This document shows, in pieces, positions 1,478 to 41,004 of a stretch of 64,000 nt of DNA. The position numbers and the translations under genes were made by a program. Source of the DNA: Octopus sinensis (Eukaryota); NCBI RefSeq assembly GCF_006345805.1, contig NC_043007.1:21452001-21516000 (forward strand), written 5' to 3'. How positions within the stretch are numbered: position 1 is the stretch's first letter; each line of letters starts with the position of its first letter. The notes beneath the pieces are model-generated. The model searched no databases. It saw only the letters and a list, made by a program, of their open reading frames with translations, and was not told the DNA's origin.

Positions 1478-1523
1478 AACACAACATTTCGGCTGATATA
1501 CCCTCCAGCCTTCATCAGGTGTC
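1478..1523 (-). ncRNA. Minimal type I hammerhead ribozyme motif (PLE-type)
   Basis: Minus strand reads GACAC-CTGATGA-A-GGCTG-GAGGGTATAT-CAGCC-GAAA-TGTT-GTGTT: CUGANGA and GAAA cores, 5-bp stem II, ACAC/GTGT stem I. The palindromic stem III ACGT appears decayed to ATGT. Confidence 0.7.
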
Positions 1524-1567
1524 TTGGGGAAATTTCTTAAGGTATTTTTCGATATTATTATTATTAT

Positions 1568-1857
1568 TCAGTAGTTTTATTTTTATAGCGTGCTTTCACT
1601 TCACTACCGAGTGCAGCTCTGTGTGCCTTGGGTATGTGCTGTGATTTGTTGTGATGCTCTGAAGGTATTGAAAGTGTTTTGCATAGGACGTGTGCAGTGT
1701 CCAGTAGTGCAATTTTCTGTATGTTATATGTGTTTGTAAGTCCTGGTGTTTTTGTTATGTATTTGTCTGAAAATTTTTTTATCATGCCTAATGCACCTAC
1801 TATGATAGGAATTGTTTCTGTTTTTAGATTCCACATTCTAGTTACCTCTATTTCCAG

Positions 1858-1859
<2 letters not shown>
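1568..1859 (-). mobile_element. 5'-truncated R4/Dong-clade non-LTR retrotransposon (C-terminus of the restriction-like endonuclease plus 3' UTR) inserted in (TAA)n
   Basis: Translation LEIEVTRMWNLKTETIPIIVGALGMIKK...QKIALLDTAHVLCKTL matches the R4/Dong-type C-terminal pattern. It is flanked on both sides by (TTA)n, the known target of Dong-like elements. Confidence 0.8.
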
Positions 1860-1893
<34 letters not shown>

Positions 1894-2294
1894 TATTATT
1901 ATTATTATTATTATTATTATCCAGGTCACTGCCTGGAATTGAGTCAAGTACTGGGATCTATTATTTCTCCATCTTTTATTCCTATCCACTGTCTGTCTGT
2001 CTTTCTTTTTCTCTCTCAGAAATCAGCTGAGATCAAGCCAAAAGCAAAGCATATGTTGTATATTTGTGAATTAGATTAGTAAAATTAACAATTTATTTTT
2101 CTGAAGACAGATGTACACCAAAGGCTTTTATGCACTTTCATTTCACTTTTGGTGCTAAAAAGACCCCCTTCGTCCCTGGCATAGAAAATCCTTGATAAGT
2201 TTGCTTCACTGATATCTTTTCTTCCTCCATTCTCAGCCACCACACATCTCAGTGTCTTTCTCTTCTAAATCTTACTGTTAGGCTTTGAACTACA

Positions 2295-2735
2295 CAGAAT
2301 TTGAGCAGGAAGTTACTCGAGAACAATGTTGTTGGTCAGCTGTTGTGAGCTCCTTGAGCCAAGATTTAGTTGAGATCAATGTTGTTGATCAGTTCTTTGG
2401 TGAGCAGAGCTCCTTGAGCTAAGATTTAGTTGAGATTAATGTTGTTGATCAGTTCTATTGTGAGTAGAGCTCATTGAACAGAGGTTTAGTTGAGATCAAT
2501 GTTGTTGATCAGTTCTTTGGTGAGCACAGCTCCTTGAGCTAAGATTTAGTTGAGATTAATGTTGTTGATCAGTTCTTTAGTGAGCGGAGCTCCTTGAGCA
2601 GGGATTTAGTTGAATGAATGTTTTTGATTCTATTGTGAGTGGAGCTCCTTGAGCAAAGAGTTAGTTGATTAGCTATTATGAGTAGAGCCCTTTGAGCCGA
2701 GACTTAGTGGAGATCAGTGTTGTTGATCAGCTGTG
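2295..2735. repeat. 60-bp minisatellite, about 7 degenerate units
   Basis: Unit TGAGCAGAGCTCCTTGAGCTAAGATTTAGTTGAGATTAATGTTGTTGATCAGTTCTTTGG recurs in register at 2401, 2461, 2521 and 2581. The unit has stops in all six frames. Confidence 0.92.
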
Positions 2736-2881
2736 TGATGATACTCCTCAATTAACTTCTGATCCAGTTTCATTGATCACATCAGTAGTTCTTATTCATC
2801 CTCATATAATTTTGTCTGCCCAATTAAACTTCTAACTCTTAGGTCTGTCTTGGATTAGACAAATTAAGGTAGAGATAACCT

Positions 2882-3115
2882 AACTTTAGATCAGTTCAAA
2901 TATGTAAATAACATATTTGATCCGTAAAATGGTATTTTCACTGCGATTTGCCATGGAGAAATATTTTCACCTAAGGCAATAGGTTAGGTGGCACTCTGAA
3001 CTGACTTTGGTGTGCTTACACCTTTTACCCTAAGTGAGAATTTTTCTTCATAGCAAACTACAATGAAAACACCTTTCTGCTGGTTGAATATACCTCAAAC
3101 AACTGATTTAAAGTT
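2882..3115. repeat. Old degenerate inverted repeat (arms about 100 bp), probable palindromic MITE relic
   Basis: 2882-2985 aligns by eye with the reverse complement of 3018-3115; the ends are AACTTTAGATCAGTT and AACTGATTTAAAGTT. Confidence 0.6.
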
Positions 3116-3849
3116 TACTGTTTGTTTTACCCCATTGCTTCATGTGCCAGCAATGTATAAGGTAAAGACTAAAGGCGGTACTTCTTCCAACTTCACACTC
3201 TGAGTTCAAATGCTGTCAAAGCCAACTCTGCCTTTCACCCTTCTGGGGCCGGTAAAATAAGTAGCAGTCGGCCTTATGCCAAAATTCAAAACCAATATAT
3301 AAGGTCTCTACCTTCTTATTCCTAGATACATTTTTGTCTTTGGAATTTGATATTTCTTGCCTTAATTCAATTTAAAAATATTTGTGATATCTGTCTTTTC
3401 TCTTATTTTATCCTTTCTCTCCCTCCCCCCCTCTTTCCTCTCTTTGCTTTTATATTCCTTCCTCTTCCTTCTCCTCATTCTTTTCCCTTTTTTCTTTTTT
3501 CTTTTGTCTTTTCTTTCTTCATTTTCTTCCTCTACATATTATTATTATCTAGTCTATTATTTCCTCTAAATGCTATCATCTTAGCAAAAGCTTTGCTTTT
3601 TTTTTTTTTTTTGTTTTTTTATATTCCCCTTATTCTAAATAGTGTGTTTTAACCAACCTTATCTCTCCGCTCCATTTAGAGTAAGCCGTCTCTTTTGATT
3701 TCTCTCTCTCTTTCTCTTTCTCTCTCTCCCTCTCTCTCTCTCTCCTCTCTTTTTGTTAATAATCTTCTTTACACAATGGAGTTATTCCTGATGCACTCAA
3801 ATGAGAAGTTTTGCCTCCCAAATGATTCCATTAGACCAATTGTTCTTTT

Positions 3850-4470
3850 GTCGTCATCGTCATCATTATCATCACCATCATTGTGAGCATTTTTGTCATC
3901 ATTGTTTTCATCACCATCATCATCGTCATTGTCATTGTCAGAATTTTCAGCATCATCATTGACATCATCATCCCTGTAATCATTGTCATCATCGTCATCA
4001 TCATCATCACCATCATCATTATCATTGTCAGTGTCTCATCATCATAATTATCATTATCGTCATCACCATTATCTTCATCACCAGCATCATCATTGCCATT
4101 ATCTTCATCATCATCGTCATCATCCTCCTCCTCATCATCATCATCATTATCATCATCATTGTCATCATCCTCTTCATTGTTGTCATCAGTGTCTCATCAT
4201 AATTATCATTATCGTCATCACCAGCATCATCATTGCCATTATCTGCATCATCATCATAGTCATCATCATCATCGTCATCCTCCTCCTCCTCCTCATCAGC
4301 ATCATCAGCAGCATCATCATTGGCATCATCCTCATCATCATAATCTTCATAATTGTAATCATCATCATCATCATCATTATCATCATCATCATCATTATCC
4401 TCATCATCATAATCTTCATAATTGTAATCATCATCATCATCATCGTCAGTATCTTCATCATCATTTTGCC
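3850..4470. repeat. Complex (CAT)n microsatellite with internal block duplications
   Basis: Long CAT/CGT/CAC runs. These give rise to the poly-His/Ile/Ser/Met ORFs in the track. Confidence 0.95.
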
Positions 4471-4653
4471 ATTGCTATTATTTTCATTTCCATAAGACAG
4501 ACAATGTTATTTTGTGACACAGTCAATAGCAGTCTAGTCTAGCCTAGCCTAGATTAGATAAATGTCCCCCCCCCCCGCCATCTGTTATCTCTCATTCTGT
4601 ATCCAATTGTTCTGAATTTAATTCTTGGTTAAAAAGACCTGATAAAATATATA

Positions 4654-5288
4654 CAATAATATCTCGATATGTAAGTTAATTTATTCCCAAAGACACCCCC
4701 CCCCTCATAAAACGAAAACTCAGTAAAGCAAAGCAAGAATTTCCCATAGTAGCAATGTTATGAATCATAATTTGTTCCCAGAAGAATATTTTACCTATAA
4801 AATTTGGGATCTTTTCGGTTTGAATGGCAGTTTTTTTCTCGCGGTGTCATATGAAATTGTCACCCATAATTATGACCCTAGTATCGATCTATTGCGTTTC
4901 AATCTGTTTTAGGGTTAGGGTTAGGGGTGGGGGGAAGGGTATATTTTTTTTCTTCACAAATGTAAATAAACCCAATCTGTTTCTTAAACGAGGGACATAT
5001 TCATACAGCACAGAATGTTTTCACCTCAATAGACGTCATTGATTGGTTGAAATTGTGGGACCGAACCCGGAACCATGTGGTTGGTAAGCAAACTACTTAC
5101 CACACAGCCACTCCTACGCCTATTTTTTTTTTTCACTTTCTATAAATTTCTCAGTAACACACAGAAGCACGTCTTACAGTAGTAGAAACTTTTGCACTTC
5201 GTTCAAAATTTCTATCTTGTGCTTGAAAAATAAAACTCATAAACCTGGGGTCTCTTATAGGGGGTCCTCAGAAATTGAGGTATTACTG
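4654..5288. mobile_element. pogo/Tigger-like MITE carrying nested insertions
   Basis: Ends are TA|CAATAATATCTCGA and TTGAGGTATTACTG|TA (imperfect TIRs, TA flanks). Interrupted by a GGATC-TIR element (4807-5055) and a SINE A head (5056-5122). Confidence 0.65.
4807..5055. mobile_element. Truncated copy of the GGATCTTTTCGGTTTGAACGGCAG-TIR MITE
   Basis: Reverse complement of about 22030-22275. Contains (TTAGGG)3 at 4909-4926. Confidence 0.85.
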
Positions 5289-6712
5289 TACTGATAAACT
5301 AAATTATTTCAACTTGTTTCGTATCCGTCTTTTCAGTTTAGCTTGATGGTACTGATAAGCTTTCTTGTAAAATTGGTTATTTGCGTATCAATAAATTGAG
5401 CATTAATTAATTAATTAATTAACACTATATTTTATTTTTCTGCTACTAATTACATGACTGTTGAGTAGGTGTTATTCTTTTTTATTTATTTATTTTTTTA
5501 CCTGTTTTTAGTCTTTGAACTGTGGCCATGCTGTAGCACCACTTTGGAGGGCTTAGTTGAACAAATCGAACCCTAGTATTTATATTCGTTTAACAACTGG
5601 TACTTATTTTATCAGTCTCTTTTTGCTGAGCTGCTAAGTTATGGGGATGTAAACAAACCAACACTGATCGCCATGCAGTGGTGGGGTTAACTACAAAGAC
5701 ACAACACACACACACACATACATTGGGGACTGCTGTTTGTGGTATTTTAATCTGGCTTTTTATCCCATTGGAGTCAGTGTTACTGTTTATCCCCTTAAGG
5801 TAGATAAATAAAGTCCCAGACTAATATTAGGATCTATTCTTTCTATCTCTCTGTTTGTCTCTCTCTCTTACTCTCATCCTTTCTCTCTTTCTCTCTCTCT
5901 TTTACTCTCATCCTTTCTCTGTCTCTCTGTCTTTCTCTTCCTTACTCTCATCCTTTATCTGTCTCTTATTCTCAACCTTTCTCTGTCTGTTTCTGTTTGT
6001 CTCTCTCTCTCTTACTCTTATCCTTTCTCTATCTGTCTCTCTTTTTTACTCTCATCCTTTCTCTGTTTGTCTCTCTTGCTTACTTTCATCCTTTCTCCAT
6101 CTTGGTCTGTCTGTCTGTCTGTCTCTCTCTGAAAAATCAGCTGCGATCAGGCCTTGAGAATGATGGATTCTACCAGGTGTAAATGTCCAAGACATGCCAA
6201 ATGTCACAACGGTACCACTATGATTCCATCAGGAATTGAAGGCCCAAGGCAAAGCATATGAATATGCCTCAGTATGCCTGGCCTGAGGATATTGCACAAC
6301 TTATAAAACTGATCTAGAGCTTGACCCCTTTGATACCAACCCACTTGAGACCCCCACCCCTGGTTCCAAGACACAAGCTTCCTATTTCAAAGTGATCCAA
6401 CTTGAACCCTTCCACCAAAATTTCCGACAAAGTTATTTTACTAATCTTTTACCTTTTACTTGTTTCAGTCATTAGACTGTGGCCATGCTGGGGAATCACC
6501 TCAAAGAAGTTTTATCAAATGAATTCAACCCCTGTACTTTTTTTTTTGAAGCGTGGTGTTTATTTTATCAGTCGCTTTTGTCAAACTGCCAAGTTATGGG
6601 GATGTAAACAAACTCCTACTGGTTGACAAGCGGTGGATGGGGACAGACACAAACACACACACACATACACATCTATATATTATGCTGGTATGGGTAAGAT
6701 GGTCTGTCCTTG

Positions 6713-7162
6713 TTTGTCCCCTCTGTGTGTAGCCCCTTGTGAGCAGTAAAGAAATAAGAAATGTTAGCACACCGGGCGAAATGCTTAGTGGTATTTCGTT
6801 TGTCGTTATGTTCTGAGTTCAAATTCCGCCGAGGTCGGCTTTGCCTTTCATCTTTTCGGGGTCGATAAATTATGTACCAATTACGCACTGAGGTCGATGT
6901 AATCAACTTAATCCCTTTGTCTGTCCCTGTTTGTCCCCTCTATGTTTAGCCCCTTGTGTGCAATAAAGAAATAGGTATTTCATCTGTCGTTATGTTCTGA
7001 GTTCAAATTCTGCCGAGGTTGACTTTGCATTTCATCCTTTCGGGGTCGATAAATTAAGTACCAGTTACGCACTGGGGTCCCATGTAATCGACTTAACCCC
7101 TTTATCTGTCCTTGTTTGTCCTCTCTGTGTTTAGCCCCTTGTGGGCAGTAAAGAAATAAGAA
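6713..7162 (+). mobile_element. SINE family B, tandemly repeated bodies
   Basis: B-box-like GAGTTCAAATTCC followed by GAGGTCGACTTTGCCTTTCATCCTTTCGGGGTCGATAAATTAAGTACCAG, which resembles the Meta/MESC SINE domain (from memory). Further copies at about 8975-9210, 10954-11344, 19210-19590, 28935-29290, 43590-43770, 48259-48645, 52598-53008, 53830-54240 and 59868-60085. Confidence 0.85.
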
Positions 7163-7469
7163 ATGATGCTAAATAACAGCATCATTTTGTTGTAAGCATT
7201 TCCACCAGATCTTGGCGCCCTCTACACTCCCACGTCTTTCCTGCTGATTTTCAGGTTGAACAATGATGACATCAGCCTTGCGAGTGCCAGGAGAGCTTGC
7301 AAAAGGTCATTGACAGTTTCTCTCCTCCTCCTGAAAAACAGAAAAGAAAAAAGGTTGGGAAAAATAAAGAAACAAATAAAAAGCAAGATAGGATAGTCAG
7401 AGCTAGTGTGCTCATGATGTAAGATCTGTTGAGGCAGGAAGCTGAACCTAAGCATAAAACAACTGTAAT

Positions 7470-7857
7470 CTTTTACTTGTTTCAGTCATTAGACTGCGGC
7501 CATGCTGGGGCAATGCCTTGAAAAGAATTTTCAATCAAATGAACCGACCCCAGTGGGTGATTTCTTTTTTAGGCCTGGTCCTTATTCTATCGGTTACTTT
7601 TACCAAACTGCTAAGTTACAGGGATGTAAATATACCAACACCAGTTGTCAAATGGTGGTGGTGGTGGGGGGACAGACACAAACACACACACACCTACACA
7701 CATGACAGGCTTCTTTCAGTTTCCATTTACCAAATCCACTCACAAAGCTTTGGTCAGTCCGAGGCTTTTGCAGCAGACACTTACCCAAGATGCCACGCAG
7801 TGGGACTGAACCCAGAACCATGTGGTTGGGAAGCAAACTTCTTACCACACAGCCACA
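7470..7857 (-). mobile_element. SINE family A (tRNA-derived head, CORE-like segment, central TA/TG microsatellite, GTAAAAGA tail)
   Basis: Head GGCTGTGTGGTAAG...GGTTCAGTCCCACTGCGTGGCA..TTGGG.AAGTGTC is shared with more than 20 whole or partial copies in the window. Confidence 0.9.
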
Positions 7858-8099
7858 TTTATATTTCCATATTGCATTTTATGTTTTCATGCTACAGTTA
7901 TGAGTTGGATGAGAATACCAAGATGTGGATGCTGTGTAGAGGTGTGGTACGTGCTTCTCTGTATGTGTGATAGGAATGAAGAATATTTCCTTTTTGTGAA
8001 TGAATGCCCTTCCTCATACTGACTAAAACAATTGGTATTGTTCTGATTTTTTTCTTAAATTTTTGATTGTTTTCCTAAATAAGGCTGCACATATTTTAA

Positions 8100-8316
8100 C
8101 CCTTTAACATTCAGATTACTCAGTCAAATGTAATGCTTATTTATTCACATTGTTTTCAGTTAATCACATTGTAACTTTGAGATGAGGACGATACAATTGT
8201 TTATTATTATTTAGAATAACATTGTAGGGTATGTGTGAGAAGCTGGATCTGGCTGGTTTGAATGTAATACAGGAAGAATATTTGAGCCAGATATCGCTGG
8301 TTTCAATGCTTAAGAG
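8100..8316 (+). mobile_element. piggyBac-type MITE, family E
   Basis: TTAA|CCCTTTAACATT...AATGCTTAAGAG|TTAA. An inverted copy lies at 37199-37415 and a fragment at 43068-43121. Confidence 0.8.
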
Positions 8317-8326
8317 TTAAACATAC

Positions 8327-8793
8327 TCTGTATACCCGAAAGCATGAGATGGCTAAAAGTGCTTGTGTGTGTGTGTGTGTGTGTATATAATATAAATCGG
8401 ACATGGGCGATCGTTGTACTCTTTCTTGTCTTGAGGTTCACAACCAAACGGCTGGGTGGATTCGAGTGAAAAATGGCACACATGTGGAGACGGGTGCATA
8501 GATTGGAATGCAGTTTGTATTTTTTTCCTAACCCCCATACTTACGGAGAAAATCGATTAAAACTTTTTCTAATGGAATTTCCCTGTTTGTTCTGCCATTA
8601 AAACAACCAGTTGCTTAGAAGCTATTTTCTGGCGACATGGGGTCAGGAAATTTTCATATAGCTGGAGGCTCCAATCGAAACAGGGGACCCAAAATTATAA
8701 GGTTGACAAACGCTGTTATAGATTATGCCTAACCGAAAACGATCTCAGCCACATCATCCAAACAGACCGGGTGAAACCGGGCTTAGCTGCTAG
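8327..8793 (+). mobile_element. Non-autonomous Helitron-like element
   Basis: 5' TC start with a (TG)n tract near the 5' end. 3' GC-rich hairpin CCGGGTGAAACCGGG lies about 9 nt before terminal CTAG, followed by T. No TSD. Confidence 0.65.
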
Positions 8794-8816
8794 TATATAT
8801 ATATATATATATATAT

Positions 8817-9406
8817 GGCATGGCTGATGGCTTTGTTAGTTAAGAAGGTTGCTTGCGGTATCGATTCCCAGACCGGGCGTTGTGAGTGTTTACTGAGCAA
8901 AAACACCTAAAGCTCCATGAGGCTCCGGTAGGGGGTCGTGGGGAACCCTGCTGTACTCTTTCACCACAACTTTCTCTTATTTCTTTATTGCCCCAAGGGG
9001 CTAAACATAGAGGGGACAAACAAGGACAGACAAAGGGGTTAAGTCGATTACATCAACCCCAGCGCATAACTGGTACTTAATTTATTGACCCTGAACGGAT
9101 GAAAAGCAAAGTCGACTTTGGCAGAATTTGAACTCAGAACGTAGCGGCAGACGAAACACCACTAAGCATTTCACCCGGCATGCTAACATTTTTGCCAGCT
9201 CGCCGCCTTTCTCTCACTCTTCCTTCCTGTTTCTCTTGTACCTGTATTTCAAAGGGCCAGCCTTGTCACACTGAATCTCCCCAAGAACTATGCTAAGGGT
9301 ACACCTCTGTGGAGTGCTCAGCCACTTGCATGTTAATTTCACGAGCAGGCTGTTCCGTTGATTGGATCAACTGGAACCCTCGTCGTCATAACCGATGGAG
9401 TGCCAC
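8817..9406 (+). mobile_element. tRNA-derived SINE related to family G, with an antisense SINE B nested at about 8975-9210
   Basis: The body AAACACCTAAAGCTCCA...CACAACTTTCTC resumes after the nested element. The 3' part matches 57325-57528 and 20000-20100. Confidence 0.7.
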
Positions 9407-9407
9407 A

Positions 9408-9786
9408 TTAGTTATTTTACATTTTTTTGTTTTTAAACAAGGGGGATACAATTTCAAGATACCCATGATAATAATAATAAATTTGTAAACGAACTAACAA
9501 AAGCCTATGAGAAACAAATACAGAGGAGCCAAGTGGGTTATATTTTGGGTATAGATTCTTGGTTAAAAAGTTCATATCTTACTGTGTAGATTTTTCTTTG
9601 TGTTGTCTGAAAAAGACTTTATTTCGTATGCCCTGGCTTATGTAGTTGAAGAACAGGTGCCAGGTTTTTGTGGGAAATTTGTGATTTTGACAAATAACCT
9701 GTCTGGACAGATTTGCAGAGATATTTATTTTTTTAAATAATTTTCTTGTTTTAAATTTAGTTTTTTTTTTTCTTGTAAGAAATTAA
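9408..9786 (+). pseudogene. cob: Heavily decayed mitochondrial cytochrome b NUMT (middle to C-terminal pieces)
   Basis: Begins TTAGTTATTTTACATTTTTTTG (LVILHF), also present at 11565. Later patches read QVF..G.FVILT and GQICSDIYFF (AGA=Ser), in the order expected for the cytb C-terminus, with deletions. Confidence 0.5.
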
Positions 9787-10087
9787 CTGGCCGTCTGGTT
9801 TAGAATCATTATTTCAATTTTTACCTTTACACACGCACATACACACACACATTCTCTCTCTCTCTCTCTCTCTCTCAATATCACCACAAGAAAACATCCG
9901 GGCTTGTCAAGTTTGGAGAACATGAAGGCCGGTTGACATTGCCATAGTGGGAAATTATTCTCTATCCAAAGCATTGCCATAGCAACTGCATTATTTATCT
10001 TGCGGTATGAGCAGTTACCCCCATCTTGCTTGAACCATGTGTGAGGTCTACTTAGAATGGCCAGGCACAAAAAAAAAGGTCTCAATC

Positions 10088-11344: not shown

Positions 11345-11346
11345 AT

Positions 11347-11725: not shown

Positions 11726-11790
11726 TGTTTTATAAATATGATGTTCTTTTCATTATATTTATTTGTTATATTTATTATATTTATAAGTAT

Positions 11791-23775: not shown

Positions 23776-26307
23776 TTAATTCTATATACATCAATGCATA
23801 TGTGTTCCAAATGAAGGTGTTTGAATAAGGTCATTATCATCATCATCATCATCATCATTGTTGTCGTCGTCATCATCATCGTCATCATCAGCATTCTTTC
23901 TACATCCATATTTTTTTCTCCATTATAACCAATATATTTTATTGTAACACCAGCACTAGAGGGGCTCTCTACAGTAAGGCTAATTCTGTATTAGTTTTTA
24001 TTTGGAGCAACTGCCGTCCAAGATGGTTTTCTTCAGGGTTGTGGAGTTGGGGTTCAGTGCCAGTGTTGGAAGGAGTCATTGGGTTACTGGAATTCATCAT
24101 CATCATCATCGTTTAATGTCCGCTTTCCATGCTAGCATGGGTTGGACGGTTCGACCAGGATCTGGGAAGCCAGAAGGCTGCACCAGGCTCCAGTCTGATC
24201 TGGCAGTGTTTCTACAGCTGGATGCCCTTCCTAACGCCAACCACTCCATGAGTGTAGTGGGTGCTTTTTATGTGCCAGACGAGGCTGGCAATGGCCCACG
24301 ATCGGATGGTGCTTTTTACATGCCACCGGCATGGGGGCCAGGCAAGGCTGGCAATCGGCCACGATCGGATGGTGCTTTTTACGTGCCACCGGTACAGGTG
24401 CCAGACAAGGCCGGGAGCAGCCACGATTGGATGGTGCTTTTTACGTGTCACCATCCGGATAAAAATGTTCCCAATCTGATTCTGATTAAATGTAAATTGT
24501 AACATAATCTCTTAAAATTTCAAACAATGTTTTCATCGCAAAAAGAAATATTTCCGTGTTTAATTGAGTTTTTTTCTCTCTTAAAATGGTTGTTTCTAAA
24601 TTTGCTTTAGGTGGTTCACTGTTTTGGTTTTAATGCGAATAATGTACTTCAGATTTTTTTAATTGCTAACAATGTTTCTGGTTTTCTTTTATAGTTTCTT
24701 TTACAGTTTATTTCTTTTATATCTTTTTATTTTTTTTTTAGCCTTTAGATAAAAAAAAAACAACCTCTTTTAAAAAATTTTCAGAGTTTTGTTTTATGCT
24801 TATTTATTTGTAACTTCTTTAATCATGATCATCATTTAACATCCATGTTCTGTGCTAACATGGTTTGGATGGTTTAACACGATCCAATGAGTCCAAGAAC
24901 TACATGTTCCATGTGGCATGGTTTCTACAGTTACTTATTTACTCTTTTACTTGTTTCACTCATTTGACTGCGGCCATGCTGGAGCACCACCTTTAGTCAA
25001 AGAAATCGACCCCTTGATTTATTCTTTGTAAGCCTAGTACTTATTCTATCAATCTCTTTTGCTGAACCACTAAGTTACGGGGACGTAAACACACCATCAT
25101 TGGTTGTCAAGCAATGTTGGGGGACAAACACAGACACACAAACATATACACACACATATATATACATATGGAGGGGGTGGAATTGGTAAGTGATAGAAAA
25201 AGTGGTGATGAGGTGTCAAAGTGGCCGGAGCAATGAGGTGTCGGGTACAAGGTGGGTAGGATGGGGCTGAGGTACCAGGAGCGAGTTGGGGGTAGTAAGA
25301 GCCAGCTGATTGTAGTGCAGGGGAGCAGCAGATTACAAGCGATGATACAGTAAGCGGGAGAAGGACAAAAGATGACATGCTATTGGGTATGTTGCGGGGG
25401 AGTGGATGGGGAAGAGAGAGGCAGGAGCAGTATGTGAGGAGAGTGACACATATGGTGGAGGGAAGGAGAAATGATTTCATGGCAAAGTAGGAGTGGGTGA
25501 TCAATGACAGTTTGGATGAATAATAATGAAAAGAGCCACAACTTATTACAGGTTAGGGTGCTAAAAAGGAATATGATGATTCACGTTGGCCATGTGTTAT
25601 TGTGTGAGCTTTCTCTCAAAAGAAATATGAATCTAATTATGAATAGATGAGTCACTGTTGATGGTACCATGGAGTGATTAGTTGAAGTTTGAGCTTTTGT
25701 GTACCAACTTCACAACCCTAGTTTCTCTGTGATGCGGAGTGGCGTGTCCACAGCACCATCATTCCTTCTTTCCTTTTATGATTATCATTTAATGCCAGCT
25801 GCATATCAGGGAGAAATTACAAATATTATATATGTGTATATATATGTATGTATGTGTGTTTATATATATATATATATGTATATATGTGTGTATGTGTATA
25901 TATGTGTGTGTTTTCTTTTACTTGTTTCAGTCATTTGACTGCGGCCATGCTGGAGCACCGCCTTTAGTCGAACTAATTGACCCCAGGACTTATTCTTTGC
26001 ATGCCTAGTACTTATTCTATTGATTTTTTTTTTTTGCTGAACCGTTAAGTTACGAGGATGTAAATGTACCAATATCAGCTGTCAAGCGATGGTGGGGGCA
26101 CAAACACAGACACACAAATATATACACACATAAATTTATATTATATATATATGTACAAAATAATAAATAAAACGTATATAATTCGTATATATACATGTAC
26201 TTACTATTTTGTACATTACAATCATTGGTATATGTTTTTATCTTATATTTAATTTTTTTATTGTTGAATTGATAAAAGGTGGTTAACCATTATGCCATAT
26301 GCCCATA

Positions 26308-26353
26308 GACACCTGAAGAAGGCTGGAGGGTATATCAGCTGAAACGTTGTGTT
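26308..26353 (+). ncRNA. Minimal hammerhead ribozyme motif (PLE-type)
   Basis: GACAC-CTGAAGA-A-GGCTG-GAGGGTATAT-CAGCT-GAAA-CG-TT-GTGTT: intact cores, stem II with one G-U pair, palindromic stem III ACGT. Confidence 0.75.
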
Positions 26354-26398
26354 AACAACAAACAAATGAGGACAAATATCTGTCAAATGTAAAGAAGC

Positions 26399-26440
<42 letters not shown>

Positions 26441-26445
<5 letters not shown>

Positions 26446-26664
26446 CATTCAAAATGTGACCGCGTGTGTACCGTTGGCAATTTTTTTTCCTCTGTCTTCC
26501 CTTCTCTGGATCTTTCCTTCTCCTATGTTTCCGATGAAGAGCTCTGCTCGAAACGTTAAACCCTCCTTCTTCCCTTCCTTCCTGAGCGTCCAATAATACT
26601 ATATTTGTTCCACGTCCTCGCGTTGCTGTGTTTTCTCTTTGTGTTTTCATGTTTAGATTAACTA
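26441..26664 (+). mobile_element. Solo Penelope-like terminal repeat inserted in (TA)n; hammerhead motif at 26527-26561
   Basis: GTTT-CCGATGA-A-GAGC-TCT-GCTC-GAAA-CG-TT-AAAC. A second copy lies at about 40898-41107, also (TA)n-flanked. Confidence 0.75.
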
Positions 26665-29885: not shown

Positions 29886-29926
<41 letters not shown>

Positions 29927-30680: not shown

Positions 30681-31403
30681 TTACTTGATATAGGCTTTCA
30701 GTGTGCCCTACAACTCAACATCCACAAACCCAGACACCCCAAACTAAAGAAGGATTTACAACCAAAAGCCCTACCATACTTCTCCACACACAACCTCCCT
30801 AACAATGAAGCCTTCGACACCATCCTCTGAACTACTAAAAAAGTGCCACAGAAAGAATTTAATCCTCCAAACACACACCTTCATAAAGAACAAAAGACAA
30901 CCCAAATCTATGAAAAATCTCCTAACACAAGCCCGAGTACACTCAGCAATAACACTGAAGCCATCAGTAAAAATAATGCGTAAGACCTAACTGGTATATG
31001 TGTCAACCTAATTAAGGAATCAGAGTTCTCTTTCAAACCAGGTCAACGTTTTACAGTGAAAAACAACTTTACATGTGTTTTGGAAAACCTAATATATGTA
31101 TTAAGTTGCTTAGGGTGTCGAGAGCAATACATAGGCCGAACCAAAAACAGTTTACATCGAAGGATGACTCTACACACATCCCAGATCAAAATTCAGGAAT
31201 ACAGAAAAACAGCATTTAGTGAGCACATCGACATTTGCGCCACTAATGAACAACCCAGCTTCAGAATTTTCTCCCTCTATAAATTCAGGGATGATGCAAC
31301 CTGTAGTCAGCGCATTAATATAGAGTCATATATTATCACAAAATATAAACCCGTTTTGAATGTGTCCACCACAAATGACACTGCTACAAGGGCTTTAGAA
31401 TAA
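30681..31403 (+). mobile_element. Penelope-like element 3' coding region: RT-distal linker plus GIY-YIG endonuclease (decayed)
   Basis: LLDIGFQCALQLNI...LPYFSTHNLPNNEAF, then KRQPKSMKNLL, then FTCVLENLIYVLSCLGCREQYIGRTKNSLHRRMTLH...FSEH...RINIESYIITKYKPVLN (IY, YIG, R, E and LN motifs). Confidence 0.88.
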
Positions 31404-32368
31404 TTCCCACGCAATTATTAAAAATGATATATTCAGAACAATCACTACTATTATAATCGCAACAGGTCACATTTAGATCACTTGACCATTTAAGAGGATT
31501 CCACCAACATCCTTCTACTGTCATACCGTTCCCGTATTCTTCTTTACTGCCTCCTTCCTTGGCTACTGCTGCTTAAACAATCAAAATCAAGAACTTAGAT
31601 CAAATATTCTTTTAGGACTGCTAGCCAGAGAGCTGACCAGGCTCCAGTTTGATTTGGTTTGATTTCTATGGCTGGATGCCCTTCCTAATGCATTTATACA
31701 TACATACATGCACATACACAACCGACTTCTTTGAGTTTCTTTTTTCCAAATTCATTAGCAATGCATTGGTTGACTAAGGGCTATGGTAGTAAATGTCCAA
31801 GGTGCTCTGCAGTAGGACTGAACCTGAGACCATACGATTATAAAGCGAGCTCCTTAGCCACGCAGCCATGCCTGTGCCAATGCATAAAAAACTCTACTCC
31901 TAATTAAATTTGCTACTCTCACAATGTTTAACAGTGGTCAGTTCTAATGAGAAGCCATTGAAGTTCACAAGACTTTCACTTTAGTTTAATCGTTAACGAT
32001 GTCCTTTGGGTAGTAATTTTATTTCTTCACTAATTATTATAATGTTTAAAAGAAGAGAAAAACTCTTTTAAGTAACTTTGTTGCTTTTTTTTATTTAAAT
32101 ATGTTTGTATTTGTTTCTTATTTTCCTTTATTTTTTAGTTTGTTTTTACTGATTTACTGTTAGTCTTCATATCTGGTTTGTTTTCATTATTCTCTTTTTT
32201 ATAGTCTTTTCTGGGTTTTTTTTATATAAATTTTTCTTCTCATTTTATCTTCTTTTCATTATCCACTTTCTTTTTCATCACCCTTATCATTGATAGATTT
32301 TTTTGTTTCTCTCCCTCATATACATACATACATATATATACATATACATACATGCATATATATACATA

Positions 32369-32399
<31 letters not shown>

Positions 32400-32539
32400 G
32401 GTAGTTGTCTACTCCTTATGCAGGGTTTGACCACCTCCTGTACCTACACCTTAGAACCATCATGGCATCTGATGTGGCTTTTCAAACCAGGCAATGTTCT
32501 GAAAAGACACCTTCATAGATTACACTTTCAATATACACA

Positions 32540-32611
<72 letters not shown>

Positions 32612-32729
32612 GCATACATGCATACATACATACATACATACATACATACTACATACATACATACACACATATATATATATATATATAATCTCCAATATTT
32701 TTGCTCCTTTTTTATACATTTTTATATTT

Positions 32730-32776
<47 letters not shown>

Positions 32777-32885
32777 GCATATATACATATATATAAGAAA
32801 CAAATGTGTGTGTGTGTGTAAATATATATATATATATATATATTCAAGATAATGCTATGCCACTTCATAACAGTCCTTATTGTTC

Positions 32886-32926
<41 letters not shown>

Positions 32927-33950
32927 TAGATAAATAGATAGATAGATATCACTGATTTGATATTTCTTTTTGTTGTTTTTGGCATCAGTCTGCTGATAAG
33001 CATTTCAACAACTTCAGATATTTACGTTAATTGGAGGAACAAATATGATGACAGATACATAAAGAGTTCTTCCTCCTCATCATCATAAGTATTGTCGTTG
33101 TCGTTATCATCATCATCATCATCATCATCATCCATGTTCCATGCTATAGTGAGTTGGATGGCTTGACAGGATGTGATGGGTTTTTAAGGACTGAATTGTG
33201 CTCTGCTGTCCGCTTTGGCGTGGTTTCTGCAGTTGGATGCACTTCCTAATGCCAATCATTTTACACCGTGTATTGGATTCTTTTTAAGTGCCGCCAGCAC
33301 TAGTGAGGTTACTAGGCTGCTGCTCACAAGGTTATGAACCCCCAAGGGAGAGTGAGTCCTCTTTATTCCAGGGAATTAGGAGTTAAATTATATAAATGTG
33401 CTTGTGGTGATTGGTGGGGCAGATGGAAACTTGTTCTTGTAGAAGAGCTGTGTGGTTACTCACATTTAGCAGTGGAGGGAGAGATTAATCAGTATGAGCT
33501 GCAAAGAGTTCGTTAAGATGAAGTGTCCAGGTGGCCCTTCAAGGCAAGAGGTGAGTAGAAATGGGTTGGTGGGTGGGTGGATGGTTGTAAGATTGTAGGG
33601 GGGGGCAGGAGATGAGGGAATTGGTCTGGGAGGGGGGAGGTAGCCTGCATCTGTGAAGATTGGGTAGGGTTGAAGTGGGATGGCTGATGAGTCATGAATT
33701 GGAGAAGATACAGGGATGCAGAAGAGAGGTGTGGAGGCAGAGACAGGATAGTTAATGATGATACAGTTGACATGAGGAGGATGAGAAAAAGAGAGAGAAA
33801 GAAAGAGAGAGAGAGAGAGTGATGATAAGCTTAAAATAAATAAATGAATAAAAAAGTTTCGAAAAGCCAGGCCGTCTGATAACAAAAGATAAGACAGTCT
33901 GTCAGACAGACATTGAACTCAGTTTGACAGTAGCCAAGCAAATGGTTTAA

Positions 33951-34533
33951 CCCTTTGGTTACTGTATTTCTGTTGAGATGCTCTGTGTTTCTTTCAATTA
34001 ATTTTAAATATAACAAAGAATTTAGTAAAATAACTTTGTTATCATTCAGCTGGTGTTAGGAACATAAATTGTGACTAAGGTTTGGTGGAAGATTTTAATT
34101 CAAAACTTATGAAAACAAGACATTTGTACTACAGAGCCAGAGCTGGTTTCAGCCGGGTTGGTAATGAAAGGGTTAAACGCACCTCTACATTTGGGCAGAT
34201 GCACATTAAAAGCAATTGGAAGAGTGTGGATTGAAGGAAATTTAGACTATTATTTCTAGCATATAGAGTGACCACATTGAGGTCTCCTCTTATCTCTTCT
34301 GCTGATTCTTAACCCTTTCGTTACCATATTTCTGTTGAGATGCTCTGTGTTTCTTTCAATTACTTTAAATATAACAAAGAATTTAGTAAAATAACTTAGT
34401 TATCATTCAGCTAGTGTTAGGAACATAAATTGTGACTAAGGTTTGGTGGAAGATTTTAATTCAAAACTTATGAAAACAAAACATTTGTACTACAGAGCCA
34501 GGGGCGGTTTCAGCTGGGTTGGTATTGAAAGGG
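33951..34533 (+). mobile_element. Composite unit: MITE D, 132-bp spacer, MITE D (copy 1)
   Basis: MITEs at 33951-34172 and 34313-34533, each TTAA-flanked. The spacer is homologous to 42709-42838. Confidence 0.88.
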
Positions 34534-35655
34534 TTAAAGACTATTAATTAGTAAACGAATGCTTCACTAAACCTTTAAAAAAATTTTCTTTTGAGCAGTT
34601 TAGGATGTATGTGTGCACTGTCTTAATGTGAAATATTAACCCTTTTCGTACCAACCTGTCTGAAACAGCTCCTTGTTTCTATGATGTAAACTTCCTGTTC
34701 TAAATTAAAACCTGTCATCAAAATTTCATGTTAATTTAGTTCAGACACCATCTTAAAACTGTTTTGATAATGACAGTTATTTTCCTATATTCTTCATTAT
34801 TTTAAAAACTATTTGAAGGAAAGATATTGCATGTCTACTGAAATATAACAAATCTGAGATTAGCAAATGTTTGAAGCTGAATTTTGTCTGGCTGTGAAGA
34901 GAAAATTTGTTTGGGTTGTGTTGACATGAATGGACAGCTGAGACTGAAGGCAAAGAATGTGGTGAGTGATGAGTGAGTTGGATAATGAGTAAAGAAGATG
35001 TAGGAAAACTTTCTTGATGTGTTGCATCTGTTATTTTTGCTACTGGTTGTTGTTTGTTCCTTCTCGAGCCACACCTGGCTCATAAGGACAAGTTTCCTGG
35101 TTTCATTGGCGTATAGGTTCCCCACCTGGATGGGACGCTGGTCCATCACAGGTGAGGAAAAAGTGAGAGGAAGTTATGGTGAAAGAGTCAGCAGAAGTTT
35201 GCCATCGCCTTCTGCCGGAGCCACATGGAATTTAGGTGTTTCATTCACAAACACACATATCGTCCAGTCTGAGATTCGAACCCGTGATCCCTCGATCGCA
35301 AGTCTGCTGCTCTAACCACTACGCCATGTGCCTCCACTTTGCTACTGGTGATGAGTCTAAATTGTTTTGCTATTGCATGATACCAAACAGAGATTCCAGA
35401 AGGTCTCTGTTCTTGAAGGATGTGTCTGGTTGATAAGGAGGCCTTGTGACTGCATGAGACTGTGTTGGATGGTGACATCTTTGTGTGAGTGTGTATATGC
35501 ATGTGTGTGTAGGTGTGTGTGTTTGCGTGTGTAATAAACGTGTGTGAGTGTTGGAAAACAGTGAATTCTTTAGACTTCGACTTGTATTTGACCAATACTG
35601 TGGATGCTTTCAGGAACGATAATCATTTACTAAATTTCTAAAAATATTAATATTT

Positions 35656-35955
35656 CGATTTTGGATTTGGTTTGCAAGATTCTTTATATGAGTTCGTGTA
35701 TTGAAGCATATTCTGTTGTGTCTGGGGAGAGTCATTTTCTTTTTGTGCCTTATAATGTAACATACTCACCGGTAAAATTTCCACTTATTTCAATAGTCTT
35801 GACTCTTGTCAATACTCTTGAGTCAAGACTATTGAAATGGTTGCAAGACGCAACGAAAATTTTAGGAAAATAAAAATAAGAAAAAAGTGGAAATTTACCG
35901 GTGAGTGTGTTACATTATAAGGCACAAAAAGAAAATGACTCTCCCCAGACACAAC
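35656..35955. mobile_element. Foldback element with a TSD, probably Penelope-derived
   Basis: Arms 35715-35786 and 35885-35955; inner hairpin 35788-35837. TAAAAATATTAA(T/A)ATTT is duplicated at 35639-35655 and 35956-35972. Confidence 0.75.
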
Positions 35956-37483
35956 TAAAAATATTAAAATTTGCAGAATCATCTAACCCATGATATGACA
36001 GCATTTCAAGACGTAAACACTTATATAGAAAGGAACAGTTCTGAAATAGCACAAAGTCAAAAAGAAGATAAATAGATTGTGCCATCCTATCTAGTCCAAC
36101 CCAGCTCTGATAAACAAATAAGTAAAAACTTCGCTGGCTGTTGTTGAAGATAGAAATAAGATAAGATATGAAACATGAAGACCGTTGTATCAAACAACTG
36201 GCTGCTTTGTTTTCAACGTGGACAAAACAGTAACTTCTTTGGAAGACACCACCCTTTTGTAATCTTTTGCCTTTATTGGTTCTTTCAGTTTATAGAATTC
36301 TATCTTTGGTAGCACGAACTGCTGCTAGTCGGGACATGCAAAGTACTTCCTTGTTGTGCGCCTGATGGGTTAAAAGAAATTTCCTGTGCATCGTTTTAGA
36401 TAGTCAGTCTTGTCCATCTTTTATTATTATTATTATTATTTTTTTGCACTGGTGGGGTTGTCTTGACATTCTGCTATCTGGATGATAACATGTAGCACGA
36501 ACATGTTACATGTTATCTAGGCTAGTCAAAGGTGCAGGTGTGGATGTGAAGTTAAGGAGGTTGCTTACCAAGCACATGGTTTTGGGTTCAGTCCCACTAC
36601 GTGGTACCTTGGGTGAGTGTATTTTACTTTAGATGTCGGCTGATCAAAGCCATTTGAGTGGATTTGGTATATGGAAACTGAAAGAAGCCTGTTGTTTGTG
36701 TGTGTGTATGTATACACATACACACTCACACACACACATATATATGGGTTGGGCGGTTTGACTGAAGACTGGCAAGCCAGAAGGCTGTACTGAGCTCCAC
36801 TCTGATCTGGCAAAGCATCCAGCTGTAGAAACCTTGCCAGATCAGATTGGCGCCTGGTACAGCCTTCTGGCTTGCCAGTCCTCAGTCAAACCGTCCAACC
36901 CATGCCAGCATGGAAAGCGGACATTAAATGGACTAGGCTTTCGAAAAATAAGTCCCGCAGTTGATTTGTTTGATTTAAGGCAATACTCCAGCGTGGCCAG
37001 TCAAATGACTGAAACAAGTAAAAGAATGAAAGAATAATTCAAAGAGCAGATCCTTTTTCTTTTCTGTTTTCTGTTTCTCTACATTGAACCTTCCTGATTC
37101 CTTTTCTGTGGTAAACGTTTTTCAATCAAAGAATTAGCGTCACACCTTCCTGTTGTTCCCTTCCCCATGACCCTAAAAGTTACATTCTTCATGTTTAACC
37201 CTTTATCATTTAAACCAGCCATATCTGGTGAAAAAATATTCTACCTGTTTTATGTTCAGACTGGTCAGGTCTGGCCTTTCACACCTACCTACAATGTCAT
37301 TGTAAAAATAAACAGTCATATCAAATCTCAAAGCTGTGAAATAATGCATGATAAATTCAAAACAATGTGAATAAATAAGCATTTCATTTGACAGAATAAT
37401 TTGAATGTTAACGAGTTAATTAAGAAACCATTATTATTATTATCATAGTAGTAAACATATTTCATATATTTGTTATATTTCAG

Positions 37484-37564
37484 GAGGTGATACCCAGAGT
37501 AATTACAAGGCGAATTAAATTTTCTATCCCTGATTACTGCTGCAATTTTGTCAGTCTTTGCAAG
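37484..37564 (+). other. Candidate 81-nt internal exon of an unidentified gene
   Basis: Unique sequence bounded by TTTGTTATATTTCAG| and CAAG|GTATTA. Only frame 0 is open: EVIPRVITRRIKFSIPDYCCNFVSLCK. I recognise no homologue. Confidence 0.35.
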
Positions 37565-37744
37565 GTATTAATATTTTTCTTCTAATTCTTTTTTTAAAAA
37601 AAAAAAAAGGAATTTTTTTGTGTGTATTTTAATTTTAATATATTAAGGTAGTGGGGCTCTGAAAGGGGTCTCAGGGAGTAGTGTCCCTGCCATCCTGATC
37701 TAGTTTTCCACCACATTTCTTAAAAATTATGGCAGAGGTCTTGA

Positions 37745-37950
37745 TCTTGGGACCACTCATGTCTAGAAACTGAGGTTGGGGTAAGTAAGGGCATGCTCCC
37801 TGTAGAAAATCCAGCTCCAAAAGAGCCTCATGATAGCAAAGGAAGCCTTGGTCTTGGGACCACTCATGTTTAGAAACTGAGGTTGGGGCTAAGCAAGCGC
37901 ATGCTCTCTGTAGAAAATCCAGCTTCAAAGATGCCTCATGATAGCAAAGG
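37745..37950. repeat. Tandem duplication, unit about 105 bp
   Basis: TCTTGGGACCACTCATG..TAGAAACTGAGGTTGGGG...GCCTCATGATAGCAAAGGA occurs twice. Confidence 0.85.
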
Positions 37951-39794
37951 AGAATGGTCACCAGCCAGTCCAAAGGTTGGGGTGGTTTGCGCCTGCCTGC
38001 CTCAGTTGCTATGGCATCGAGGTAGATCCGGCCACCTCTGTTAATGAGGACAAAAACCTGGATTTAAAACACTGGATGATGATGATGAAGGTAAGGTGGT
38101 GAGCTGGTAGAATCGTTAACACACCAGACAAAATGCTTAAGAGCGTTTTGTTTGTCTTTACATTCTCCTGAAGTTGACATGGCTTTTCATCCCATTCAGG
38201 GGTTGATAGAATAAATACCATTTGAGCACTGATATACCCACAACAAAAAATTGCTGGCCTTGTGCCAAAACGTGAAACCATTATTATTATTATTATTATT
38301 GAGTGAGAGAGCAGTGCATGCCATCAAACTGACACTAGGGTAAAATATACGAAGCCCAGTATACCCATCATGACTACCCGTATGTGTGTGTGTGTATATG
38401 TTTGTGTGTGTGTGTTTGTCCCCCTAGCATTGCTTGACAACCGATGCTGGTGTGTTTACATCCCCATAACTTAGCGGTTTGGCAAAAGAGACTGATAGAA
38501 TAAGTACTAGGCTTACAAAGAATAAGTCCTGGGGTTGATTTGCTCGACTTAAGGCAGTACTCCAGCATGGCCACAGTCAAATGACTGAAACGAGTAAAAG
38601 AGTATATTTTTTATATTTTCGAATTGATAAACGATGTACATGTTCTGCCATTGGTTTGTTATTCTATTTAGAGCAAAAATGTTAGCTTGTGGTGTCAATG
38701 GAGTGTCAGCTTGCTGACACATGAGTCAATGGTTTGTATCCTGTCCACTATCAGGCTTCATGCCTGGAAAAAGGCATTTAGCTCTCACTAATTCAGACCA
38801 CCTAGCTTTATACGTGTGCCATGGAAGAGGCTACGGAACAGAGCTCTTTGTGGATGTAGAGATGTAATGTATAATTAATAAGCATTACAACAGTTTGCTG
38901 TGCAAAACTGAAATCATCATCATCGTTTAATATCCGCCTTCCATGCAGGCATGGGTTGGATGGTTTGACAGGAGCTGGTCAGCTGGAGCCTGAAGCAGAC
39001 TTCTGTGTCTGTTTTGGCAGGGTTTTTATGGCTGGATGCCCTTCCTAACACAAACCACTCTGCAGAGTGGACTCAGTACCCTTTATGTGGCGCAAGTACT
39101 GGCAAGGTCAGTTTGGCATGGATTTTACTGCTGGGTGCCCTTCCAAATGCTAACCACTTTACAGTGTGGACTGGATGCTTTTTAAGTGGGCCCCAGCACT
39201 AGCAGGGTCACCAAGTAACTTGAAATCTTACAAACCTGAAGAAAATTATAGAAAGATATTCTTGTGTTGTCTTCCTTGAGTTGCACTTACTGTAAAGATG
39301 TTTTCCAGATAATGAATAGGTCTTTATGTAGTGGCTGAACTAACTAGAAATAGCAATCAAATTTCCTATGCAGAGGGACTGAACCCAGAACCATGTGGTT
39401 GCAAAGCGAACTTCTTAACCACTTAACCACACAGCCTTGACTGTGTCTATATTTATTAAGCATTTTTTCTATTTTCATTTAAGAAAAATGGAAATTAGTA
39501 AAATAAAAAACTTGTGTCATTTTTATTCTTTAAATATAATTTTGCTTCGTTACTTGAATATTTTTCTTGTAAATCCAGATAAGAAATACCTAATAATCAT
39601 CAGGTGTTATCTGAAACACTTCATTATCATTCGATGGTTTTTCTATCATTTCATGGTGATTAGACCAAAATTTACTTCGCTAGATTTAGGTGAAAGTTCA
39701 TCAATTTATTTAAACTTTTTTTATAATTATAATGGCATTCTCTTTTTGTGTCCTTTGTATCTTTTTCTTTTCAGAAACACTGACGTTGATTTAT

Positions 39795-39888
<94 letters not shown>

Positions 39889-39958
39889 TTAGGGAGTATA
39901 ACTCCAAACTTACAGGGAAAAATTCAATTTAGTATTAAATCAAATTTCCCGGTATAAA

Positions 39959-40229
39959 TATATAAATTAGAGATAAAACCACTATTATGCAACTCAAACA
40001 TTGAAAAGATCTCAAAAAGTATAAAAATGAATGATCAATATATAATATATTAATTAAAAAATATATTATATTAATTAATATATTATATATTGATCATTCA
40101 TTTTTATACTTTTTGAGATCTAGTTATATGTTATATGTTTTATAAAAATATATATTATTTGTTATTTATGTATTGGTTTATGTCTATCAATGTTTGAGTT
40201 GCATAATAGTGGTTTTTTCTCTAATTTAT

Positions 40230-40292
<63 letters not shown>

Positions 40293-40532
40293 ATATCAAA
40301 CATTATCATTGAGTTAGAAAACAGAGAGATCTAATGGATATACAAATTGATTTATTAATTACTTAACATAATCACCTGCAATTGTTTCATTTCACAAACA
40401 AAATCACAATTGCGAAACATTAATTTTGTTTGTGAAATGAAACAATTGTAGGTAAATATGTTAAGTAATTGATAAATCAATTTGTATCCATTAGATCTCT
40501 CTCTGTTTTCTAACTCGATAATAACATTTGAT
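39959..40532. repeat. Cluster of long inverted repeats embedded in (TA)n
   Basis: Nested arms 39959-40004/40187-40232 and 40007-40057/40071-40121. Separate arms of about 110 bp at 40295-40404/40423-40532. Confidence 0.88.
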
Positions 40533-40969
40533 GAATTATGATGTTTTATATAATGTATTCATTGAAGAAATATCTCTTCAAAATACAATATATTAAACCA
40601 GTTATCTTGGATAAAATATCTCTATAAGAGGTTTAAATATCCTCATTGTGGCTATATATATATGTATACAACAATTGTTATTCACATGTGTATATCTTTC
40701 TGAGGAATTTTCTGATATTGATTTCCTATAATTAATAATAATATATTATTAAAAAAAATATACATATATATATAATCGCTCGTATTAAATATATAAATAC
40801 TTTAATAGTATTAATACTTTGATACAATCGAGCACTGAATATAAATTCAGTATATAATATTCTCATTGAATATATTTAACTAAAGATTTATATATATATG
40901 TGACCGTGTGTGTATTGTTGGCGATTTTTGTCCTCCGTCTTCCCTTCCTTGGATCTTTCCTTTTCCTAT

Positions 40970-41004
40970 GTTTCTGACGAAGAGCTCCGCTCGGAACGTT
41001 AAAT
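40970..41004 (+). ncRNA. Minimal hammerhead ribozyme motif within the solo pLTR at about 40898-41107
   Basis: GTTT-CTGACGA-A-GAGC-TCC-GCTC-GGAA-CG-TT-AAAT; one core substitution (GAAA to GGAA). Confidence 0.65.

Follow-up and report, generated by a model that had tools for sequence, protein, structure and literature searches.

Hammerhead cassettes in an Octopus sinensis genomic window are assigned to the terminal repeats of two coding Penelope-like element families, one of them with a tRNA-like 5' segment

A 64,000-nucleotide stretch of the Octopus sinensis genome (contig NC_043007.1, positions 21,452,001 to 21,516,000 of the forward strand, here called the window) contains four short hammerhead-like cassettes, which raises the question of what kind of element they belong to and how they are copied. 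An initial annotation, made from the letters of the window, had read them as two families of non-autonomous, possibly retrozyme-like derivatives of Penelope-like elements (PLEs), mobilised by a PLE whose relic lies at 30681-31403. The present analysis very probably places them instead in the pseudo-long terminal repeats (pLTRs) of two PLE families that encode their own reverse transcriptase (RT) and GIY-YIG endonuclease (EN) and are likely to mobilise themselves. One of the two, family 1, has a tRNA-derived 5' segment from which RNA polymerase III (Pol III) might transcribe it. This segment, and the lack of runs of four T (T4) on the family 1 coding strand, had been overlooked in the initial annotation.

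All four cassettes were found where they had been reported, at 1478-1523, 26308-26353, 26527-26561 and 40970-41004. A relaxed hammerhead descriptor, written only once the data had been seen, matched three times in the window and not once in 100 block-shuffled windows. In an Rfam scan of the window the best 150 of 189 matches include no hammerhead family, as expected for motifs this minimal. Exact k-mer matching in the 2.72-Gb assembly, which yields lower bounds, returned 7,752 matches for a 21-mer of family 1 and 8,424 for a 24-mer of family 2; neither reversed control gave any. The claimed high copy number is thereby borne out, with at least 7,752 family 1 arms (a family 1 locus often has two) and at least 8,424 family 2 copies. 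The core columns of family 1 are kept in 115-136 of 137 arms, 74 of which are fully intact, and the consensus has the CUGANGA and GAAA core of a minimal type I hammerhead. Helices I and II are paired, an extra base follows A9, helix III is palindromic, and the stems differ between the families. The comparison of the families thus confirmed that the same core stands on unrelated stems, and because the variation within families is mostly CpG decay, the structural support comes from this between-family comparison. The predicted core motif is present with different stems in four families of this study and in 17 metagenome loci. Of the GAAA-CG-TT core given for all four cassettes, the CG does not hold for the 1478-1523 copy, which reads GAAA-TG-TT owing to CpG decay. 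By their sequence features, all four are minimal hammerheads in 5'-truncated pLTRs of two coding PLE families, and the linkage to RT/GIY-YIG open reading frames (ORFs) described below supports the initial assignment to minimal type I hammerheads of the PLE kind.

Going upstream from the family 1 hammerhead, the copies contain a linker, then (AAT)n and then a 75-nt segment, called the head in the following, in which boxes A and B lie. When the genome was searched with the head only, 26 of 30 loci had the hammerhead module downstream and 16 had an inverted arm upstream. Some family 1 copies extend further, into the end of an endonuclease ORF. In a search with this ORF end the head follows in 29 of 30 loci and the hammerhead module in 26, where the 30 include the query locus, and L199/L201-203 represent one duplicated locus. 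Locus L276 contains a whole unit, with a head, (AAT)n, a hammerhead that is partly deleted in that copy, an ORF with DKG motif, RT and EN, and the next head. The order of the family 1 unit is 75-nt tRNA-like head, (AAT)n, linker with the first ATG, hammerhead, RT, EN, stop codon and next head. The hammerhead sits in frame inside the first codons; the frame continues from the hammerhead into the ORF in L276, L292 and L295, and a homologue of 847 aa (P0006) opens with a peptide similar to the hammerhead-coded one. The EN was recognised by motif, by a BLASTP match to the family 2 EN (E 2e-4) and by homologues with PF01541, whereas RVT_1 matches of the PLEs score under the curated cut-off. A single ORF with a PLE-type RT and, at its C terminus, a GIY-YIG EN, joined to the repeat, is what defines an EN-containing PLE, and this arrangement was found. 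No cysteine linker precedes the family 1 EN, in keeping with the account of Penelope/Poseidon in the available text of PMC8557442, and by the absence of this motif family 1 is classed as a Penelope/Poseidon-type PLE. Close relatives of the family 1 ORF have 56-69% identity over the RT query; barnacle proteins (the P0010 cluster) are among them, nearer than most matches.

The copies themselves show the marks of PLE pLTRs. In 60 family 1 loci taken in genome order, two pairs of which look duplicated, some part of the head is present in 40 and base 1 of the head is reached in 32, with 27 of these ending there and five running on into the ORF end. Inverted pairs make up 24 of the 60 loci, four have two same-strand hammerheads, and the 3' ends fall into two clusters about 30 nt apart. 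Inverted pairs and double 3' ends are PLE features in PMC11167929, PMC3846280 and PMC8557442, and PMC11167929, in its available text, attributes the two 3' ends of a PLE tail to two RT start sites. Together with the complete unit of L276, these hallmarks, the inverted 5'-truncated arms and the optional tail of 30-40 nt, identify the family 1 repeat as a PLE pLTR. Just 5' of the shorter 3' end, a 9-nt unit varies in copy number between L276, L292 and L295; it stays in the ORF frame as Asn-Asn-Val repeats and is possibly a slippage mark of RT initiation. The linker (1524-1552 on the minus strand; L012:1700-1745) forms a short hairpin followed by GAAA that has the look of half a hammerhead. It faintly resembles the repeat family at 54604-54690 and is possibly the remnant of a second motif.

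Within the window, family 1 copy A lies on the minus strand and is 5'-truncated within the head. It begins with the 3' third of the head, including a box B remnant, and part of the (AAT)n tract (1859-1945), and continues with the first (AAT)n block and a partly deleted linker (1524-1569). The (AAT)n tract is interrupted at 1570-1858 by a later insertion, the 3' end of another retroelement's ORF, whose peptide we take to resemble the C termini of R4/Dong-type long interspersed elements (LINEs). The minimal type I hammerhead follows at 1478-1523 (core C3 at 1518, stem III ATGT, predicted cut between 1483 and 1482), and then the 3' part, the start of the PLE ORF, which reaches the shorter of the two usual 3' ends (1430-1477). 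Copy B, on the plus strand, comprises the hammerhead and 3' part at 26308-26391, with an intact minimal hammerhead at 26308-26353, its core at 26313-26319 and a predicted cut after 26348. The first 22 nt or so of the head, with box A, lie next to it in inverted orientation (26279-26305, minus strand), and this inverted head is joined by its first base to the hammerhead arm.

For family 2, one long copy was traced upstream through a (CA)-rich untranslated region (UTR) to a GIY-YIG C terminus. A search with this C terminus gave 30 loci, and a pLTR in the same orientation lies behind the EN in 21 of the 29 others, scored within the 1.5 kb fetched, at a distance of 0.7-1.5 kb and with one pLTR partly deleted. 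Of the full-length PLEs with these termini, which the initial annotation had proposed to look for, L276 is a whole unit for family 1, and for family 2 the pLTR lies behind these ORF ends. The linked ORFs have a DKG motif, an RT and a CxxC linker, and the unit consists of RT, CxxC linker, EN, a (CA)-rich 3'UTR of about 1 kb, a 216-nt hammerhead pLTR and (TA)n; family 2 is, by the CX2-5CxxC linker before its EN, a Neptune-type PLE. No pLTR was found upstream of the family 2 ORF. Of 20 family 2 loci in genome order none has an EN within 2 kb; one contains two copies, and (TA)n forms the end of about 17. The pLTR has a sharp 5' end. In the window, copy A is an entire pLTR of about 216 nt followed by (TA)n (26444-26660, plus strand), with its hammerhead at 26527-26561, and copy B is at 40898-41103 (plus strand), with its hammerhead at 40970-41004. 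An internally deleted element is suggested by L064 (reverse, 6683-6969), where a Neptune-type ORF is represented by its N-terminal part, joined directly to a family 2 pLTR. Near-perfect palindromes were seen beside two family 2 copies (L065:2788-3750, about 960 nt; L068, arms of about 1.5 kb) and are other elements in (TA)n tracts.

The initial annotation had described the family 2 consensus as intact, and this is contradicted by the majority of copies. C replaces U at core position 4 (U4C) in 31 of 53 aligned copies and in 68 of the first 100 genome matches listed (hand count), and it is linked to an upstream diagnostic base, with 65 plus 29 matches concordant and six discordant. The canonical core is therefore found in the minor U4 subfamily only. 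Copy A belongs to the U4C subfamily and copy B to the U4 subfamily. Each had been credited with a private single core change, which is correct for the rare A13G of copy B at 40994 (2 of 53 aligned copies), whereas the U4C of copy A at 26532 is subfamily-wide. According to the available text of PMC3088659, U4C considerably reduces hammerhead activity in vitro, although it is tolerated in a viroid. Because the U4C subfamily made most family 2 copies, the hammerhead is probably not required for insertion.

The relationship of the family 1 head to tRNAs was assessed by alignment to 15 distinct tRNAs of the genome, a set that lacks several isotypes. The head majority sequence aligns colinearly with a score of 55, compared with 29.7 +/- 3.8 for shuffled sequences (maximum 48, n=500); the reverse complement scores 31. 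ARAGORN gives the head a cloverleaf only at -ps90. In opening with a tRNA-related head that contains boxes A and B, family 1 has the structure of a tRNA-derived short interspersed element (SINE). Such a SINE would be non-autonomous and its head absent from the partner element, whereas here the head stands behind 29 of 30 ORF ends and opens the L276 unit; a separate tRNA-SINE with a PLE tail was therefore dropped as an explanation. The head begins exactly at the element boundary in L276, and at seven junctions its base 1 is joined to an inverted hammerhead arm with no palindrome required. Among 80 same-clade metagenome loci, many of them on contigs too short to tell, no tRNA-like head was seen at the ORF end; 17 of the 80 have a hammerhead, and four incidental tRNA calls were made.

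Pol III stops at T-runs, and the first T-run behind the tRNA genes of this genome is a T4 in 16 of 28 flanks. The sense strand of the family 1 unit has no T4 run in 2,498 majority columns, where 2.4-4.6 were expected (P 0.063 under a Markov-1 model, and 0.007). In the family 1 ORF segments T4 occurs at 0.15/kb, whereas synonymous shuffling gives 1.27/kb; T3 and A4 are as frequent as expected. Seven family 1 copies (one more was dropped as too short) have three T4 runs where 20.3 were expected. Two other PLE families of the genome gave T4 ratios of 1.26 and 1.63. Of the same-clade metagenome loci, 74 had at least 900 matched bases, and their ORFs contain 530 T4 runs against 476 expected. None of the 69 controls with an expectation of at least 2 is free of T4, and the lowest control ratio, 0.27, lies above the 0.15 of family 1. 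Since the family 1 copies share one master, the honest P for the absence of T4 is about 0.05. Low Phe content had been considered as a sign of T avoidance and was rejected as a trait of the clade (2.9-3.3%).

From these observations a course of events can be proposed in which each family would likely be inserted by its own RT and GIY-YIG endonuclease. Extrapolating from the biochemistry of PAc, the Poseidon element of Anolis, read-through RNA would be reverse transcribed by target-primed copying that starts at two sites, about 30 nt from each other and immediately beyond the hammerhead in the downstream pLTR. Where RT stops early, copies with only the pLTR could then result, and head-to-head arms could come from fold-back or a template switch at the 5' end of the RNA. 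For family 1, Pol III may start at base 1 of the head and run through the T4-free unit and the next pLTR to the first flanking T-run, a possibility that we place just short of an even chance and that draws on one master element. Less surely, pLTR-only copies with a head might then be transcribed alone, as SINEs are. The fuller scenario, in which a tRNA promoter captured by the element yields a terminator-free, uncapped Pol III RNA of 2.7 kb that encodes the RT-endonuclease, is translated cap-free with the help of the hammerhead at the ORF start and leaves SINE-like end copies, is only slightly less probable than Pol III transcription itself.

Several observations weigh against Pol III transcription of family 1, or against the coding-PLE assignment that underlies it. 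The family 1 EN gives no Pfam GIY-YIG match, no intact family 1 ORF was seen (the longest stop-free majority frame has 360 aa), and the clade names derive from motifs, not from a tree. As a tRNA the head is decayed: ARAGORN at default settings calls it in 0 of 30 loci, Rfam does not call it, and its T-arm and acceptor stem pair poorly. None of the data sets listed with the family 1 module is RNA. Raw RNA reads from a related organism (organism C; unstranded, fragmented libraries, about 6% of each run) cover family 1 but show no defined transcript ends: depth over family 1 tracks the DNA depth profile, about three quarters of the family 1 reads continue into unrelated flanks, and reads pile up neither where the head begins nor at the cut site. 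A Pol III RNA would also be uncapped, which leaves its translation without an explanation. For no window copy is the dimer hammerhead the minimum in cofolding, and the fold with helices I and II is the minimum for the 26308 copy only. Family 1 could be an ordinary Penelope/Poseidon element transcribed by RNA polymerase II (Pol II), in which an old tRNA-SINE fragment had become part of the pLTR, the sharp 5' end arose by fold-back at a small palindrome where the head begins and T4 is missing by chance; we consider this quite conceivable, if a little under an even bet. The state of the head fits it, as do RNA reads resembling passive co-transcription, and for one master with about three T4 runs expected, the probability of none is about 0.05-0.06. 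A sharp 5' boundary and 5' palindromes are common to pLTRs in general (PMC3846280, available text), the family 2 pLTR has such a 5' end with the tRNA head absent, and the Penelope of D. virilis is described in the available text of PMC2377424 with a LINE-like, TATA-less internal promoter. Chance loss of T4 is harder to reconcile with a ratio below that of every same-clade control, and fold-back with a head that starts at the element boundary, both in L276 and at the seven palindrome-free junctions.

The original proposal, that two retrozyme-like and non-autonomous elements are moved in trans by the PLE of the relic, is now improbable. It agrees with the absence of an ORF from 55 of 60 family 1 and all 20 family 2 loci and with the derivation of retrozymes from PLE pLTRs (bioRxiv 10.64898/2026.07.22.740005, available text), and headed family 1 modules could act non-autonomously if re-transcribed. 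Yet each module forms the end of an ORF of its own, and tandem hammerhead units like those of retrozymes are rare here, same-strand doubles occurring in four of 60 family 1 and one of 20 family 2 loci. The relic (30681-31620, plus strand) is that of a different Neptune-type PLE family and comprises the linker, the GIY-YIG domain (30984-31400; Pfam E 5.5e-6) and the start of the 3'UTR, cut short before its own hammerhead. That family is very large (15,890 first-look candidates), and in 20 of 30 loci its 3'UTR has a U3-A8 hammerhead whose helix III is a palindrome of 6 nt, placed 400-1150 nt past the EN in L070-L098. With no 3'-end homology to the cassettes, an EN only 23% identical to that of family 2 and no BLASTP match to the family 1 protein, the relic family was ruled out as mobiliser or partner of either family. 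Relic-type ORFs beside family 2 copies in L039, L041 and L047 were also considered as partners; they are three different ORFs, never directly before the family 2 pLTR, and are better read as common (TA)n targeting. It is unlikely, too, that the hammerheads are efficient and essential dimer-cutting ribozymes that drive retrotransposition through circles. The retention of the motif on different stems across families would agree with such a role, and the architecture fits the minimal hammerheads of PMC4209133, whose dimers, in the available text, cleave weakly. The U4C majority of family 2 speaks against it, as does a further hammerhead-like repeat with A6U in 9 of 9 distinct copies, and in the available text of PMC11167929 PAc hammerhead mutants still insert in vitro. 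The analysis predicts that the hammerhead would cut weakly, as a dimer or with protein help.

Two further hammerhead-like repeats were noted. The weaker candidate of the initial annotation at 54621-54655 is real, as a decayed member of a separate repeat family (54604-54690, plus strand; core 54623-54629; 31 matches). This family is older, with at least 31 copies; its majority sequence, taken over 20 aligned copies, pairs both stem I (5 bp) and stem II (4 bp), G12 is often A, as expected from CpG decay, and the window copy no longer folds as the majority does. No PLE ORF was found near 20 loci of this family. The A6U repeat (L059, L062, L075 and six others) ends in (TA)n and has the core CUGU(A/G)GA. 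The window also contains a 138-nt tandem repeat at 49371-50060, with an inverted copy at 46625-46818.

The assignment to two coding PLE families is in line with known systems, which are compared here as far as the available text of each source goes. PLE pLTRs with minimal hammerheads have already been described, as have their solo copies and inverted pairs (PMC4209133). The cassettes share with them the core, the extra base between A9 and G10.1, the G10.1-C11.1 pair, the palindromic 15.2-16.2, the short helix I, solo copies in their thousands, inverted pairs lying close together and the U3-A8 variant of the relic family, whereas subfamily-level U4C (family 2), A6U (another family) and a tRNA-derived pLTR go unmentioned in that text. 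Family 1 resembles Poseidon_Ac (PAc, Anolis) and Pen2a (Adineta) in its single RT-EN ORF of about 840 aa with the hammerhead in the first codons, its two 3' ends separated by about 30 nt, its pLTRs in direct and head-to-head arrangement and its AT-rich targets (PMC11167929, PMC3846280); it differs in the box A/B head and (AAT)n before the ORF and the T4-free sense strand, while Pen2a has a putative TATA/initiator promoter. Family 2 and the relic agree with Neptune PLEs in the C-terminal EN, cysteine linker, long 3'UTR and hammerhead near the 3' end, and family 2 also in its (TA)n targets (PMC8557442); the U4C of its major subfamily sets it apart, its clade being assigned by motif only. The schistosome Sm-alpha and Sj-alpha repeats likewise combine a Pol III-type promoter with a following hammerhead in a short repeat, but they are non-coding, often tandem, active ribozymes, whereas the family 1 module is the end of a coding PLE (PMC6765202, a review). 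A Pol III promoter derived from a small RNA is also found in the terminal repeats of the TRIMp3 elements Cassandra, Helenus and Ajax; these are non-autonomous LTR elements whose autonomous partners are expected to use Pol II, in contrast to family 1, which is autonomous and carries the head itself (PMC10886601). Metazoan non-LTR retrozymes have a type I hammerhead, PLE ancestry and short non-coding copies in common with the cassettes (PMC7229834, bioRxiv 10.64898/2026.07.22.740005), but form tandem arrays with one hammerhead per unit, unlike the monomers or inverted pairs linked to their own ORFs seen here. No tRNA-headed or Pol III-transcribed PLE was found in the literature, although Repbase/Dfam, subscription papers and the supplements of PMC8557442 and PMC13282606 may hold one; tRNA or Pol III is unmentioned in the available text of PMC13343379, and ribozymes are unmentioned in the main text of the octopus repeat annotation PMC13282606.

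The hammerheads themselves are therefore an expected PLE feature, and what is unusual is the tRNA head and the T4-free sense strand of the coding family 1. The natural core variants of successful subfamilies (family 2 with U4 and U4C, the relic family with U3-A8, another family with A6U) provide matched pairs for asking whether PLE hammerheads need to cut. If family 1 is indeed transcribed by Pol III, a coding retrotransposon would break the usual split in which coding elements use Pol II and SINEs use Pol III. It would raise the testable question of how uncapped RNA is translated, for which the available text of PMC13725137 is relevant in that ribozyme cleavage can promote cap-independent translation. 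It would also connect coding PLEs with repeats that combine a Pol III promoter and a hammerhead, schistosome Sm-alpha being one.

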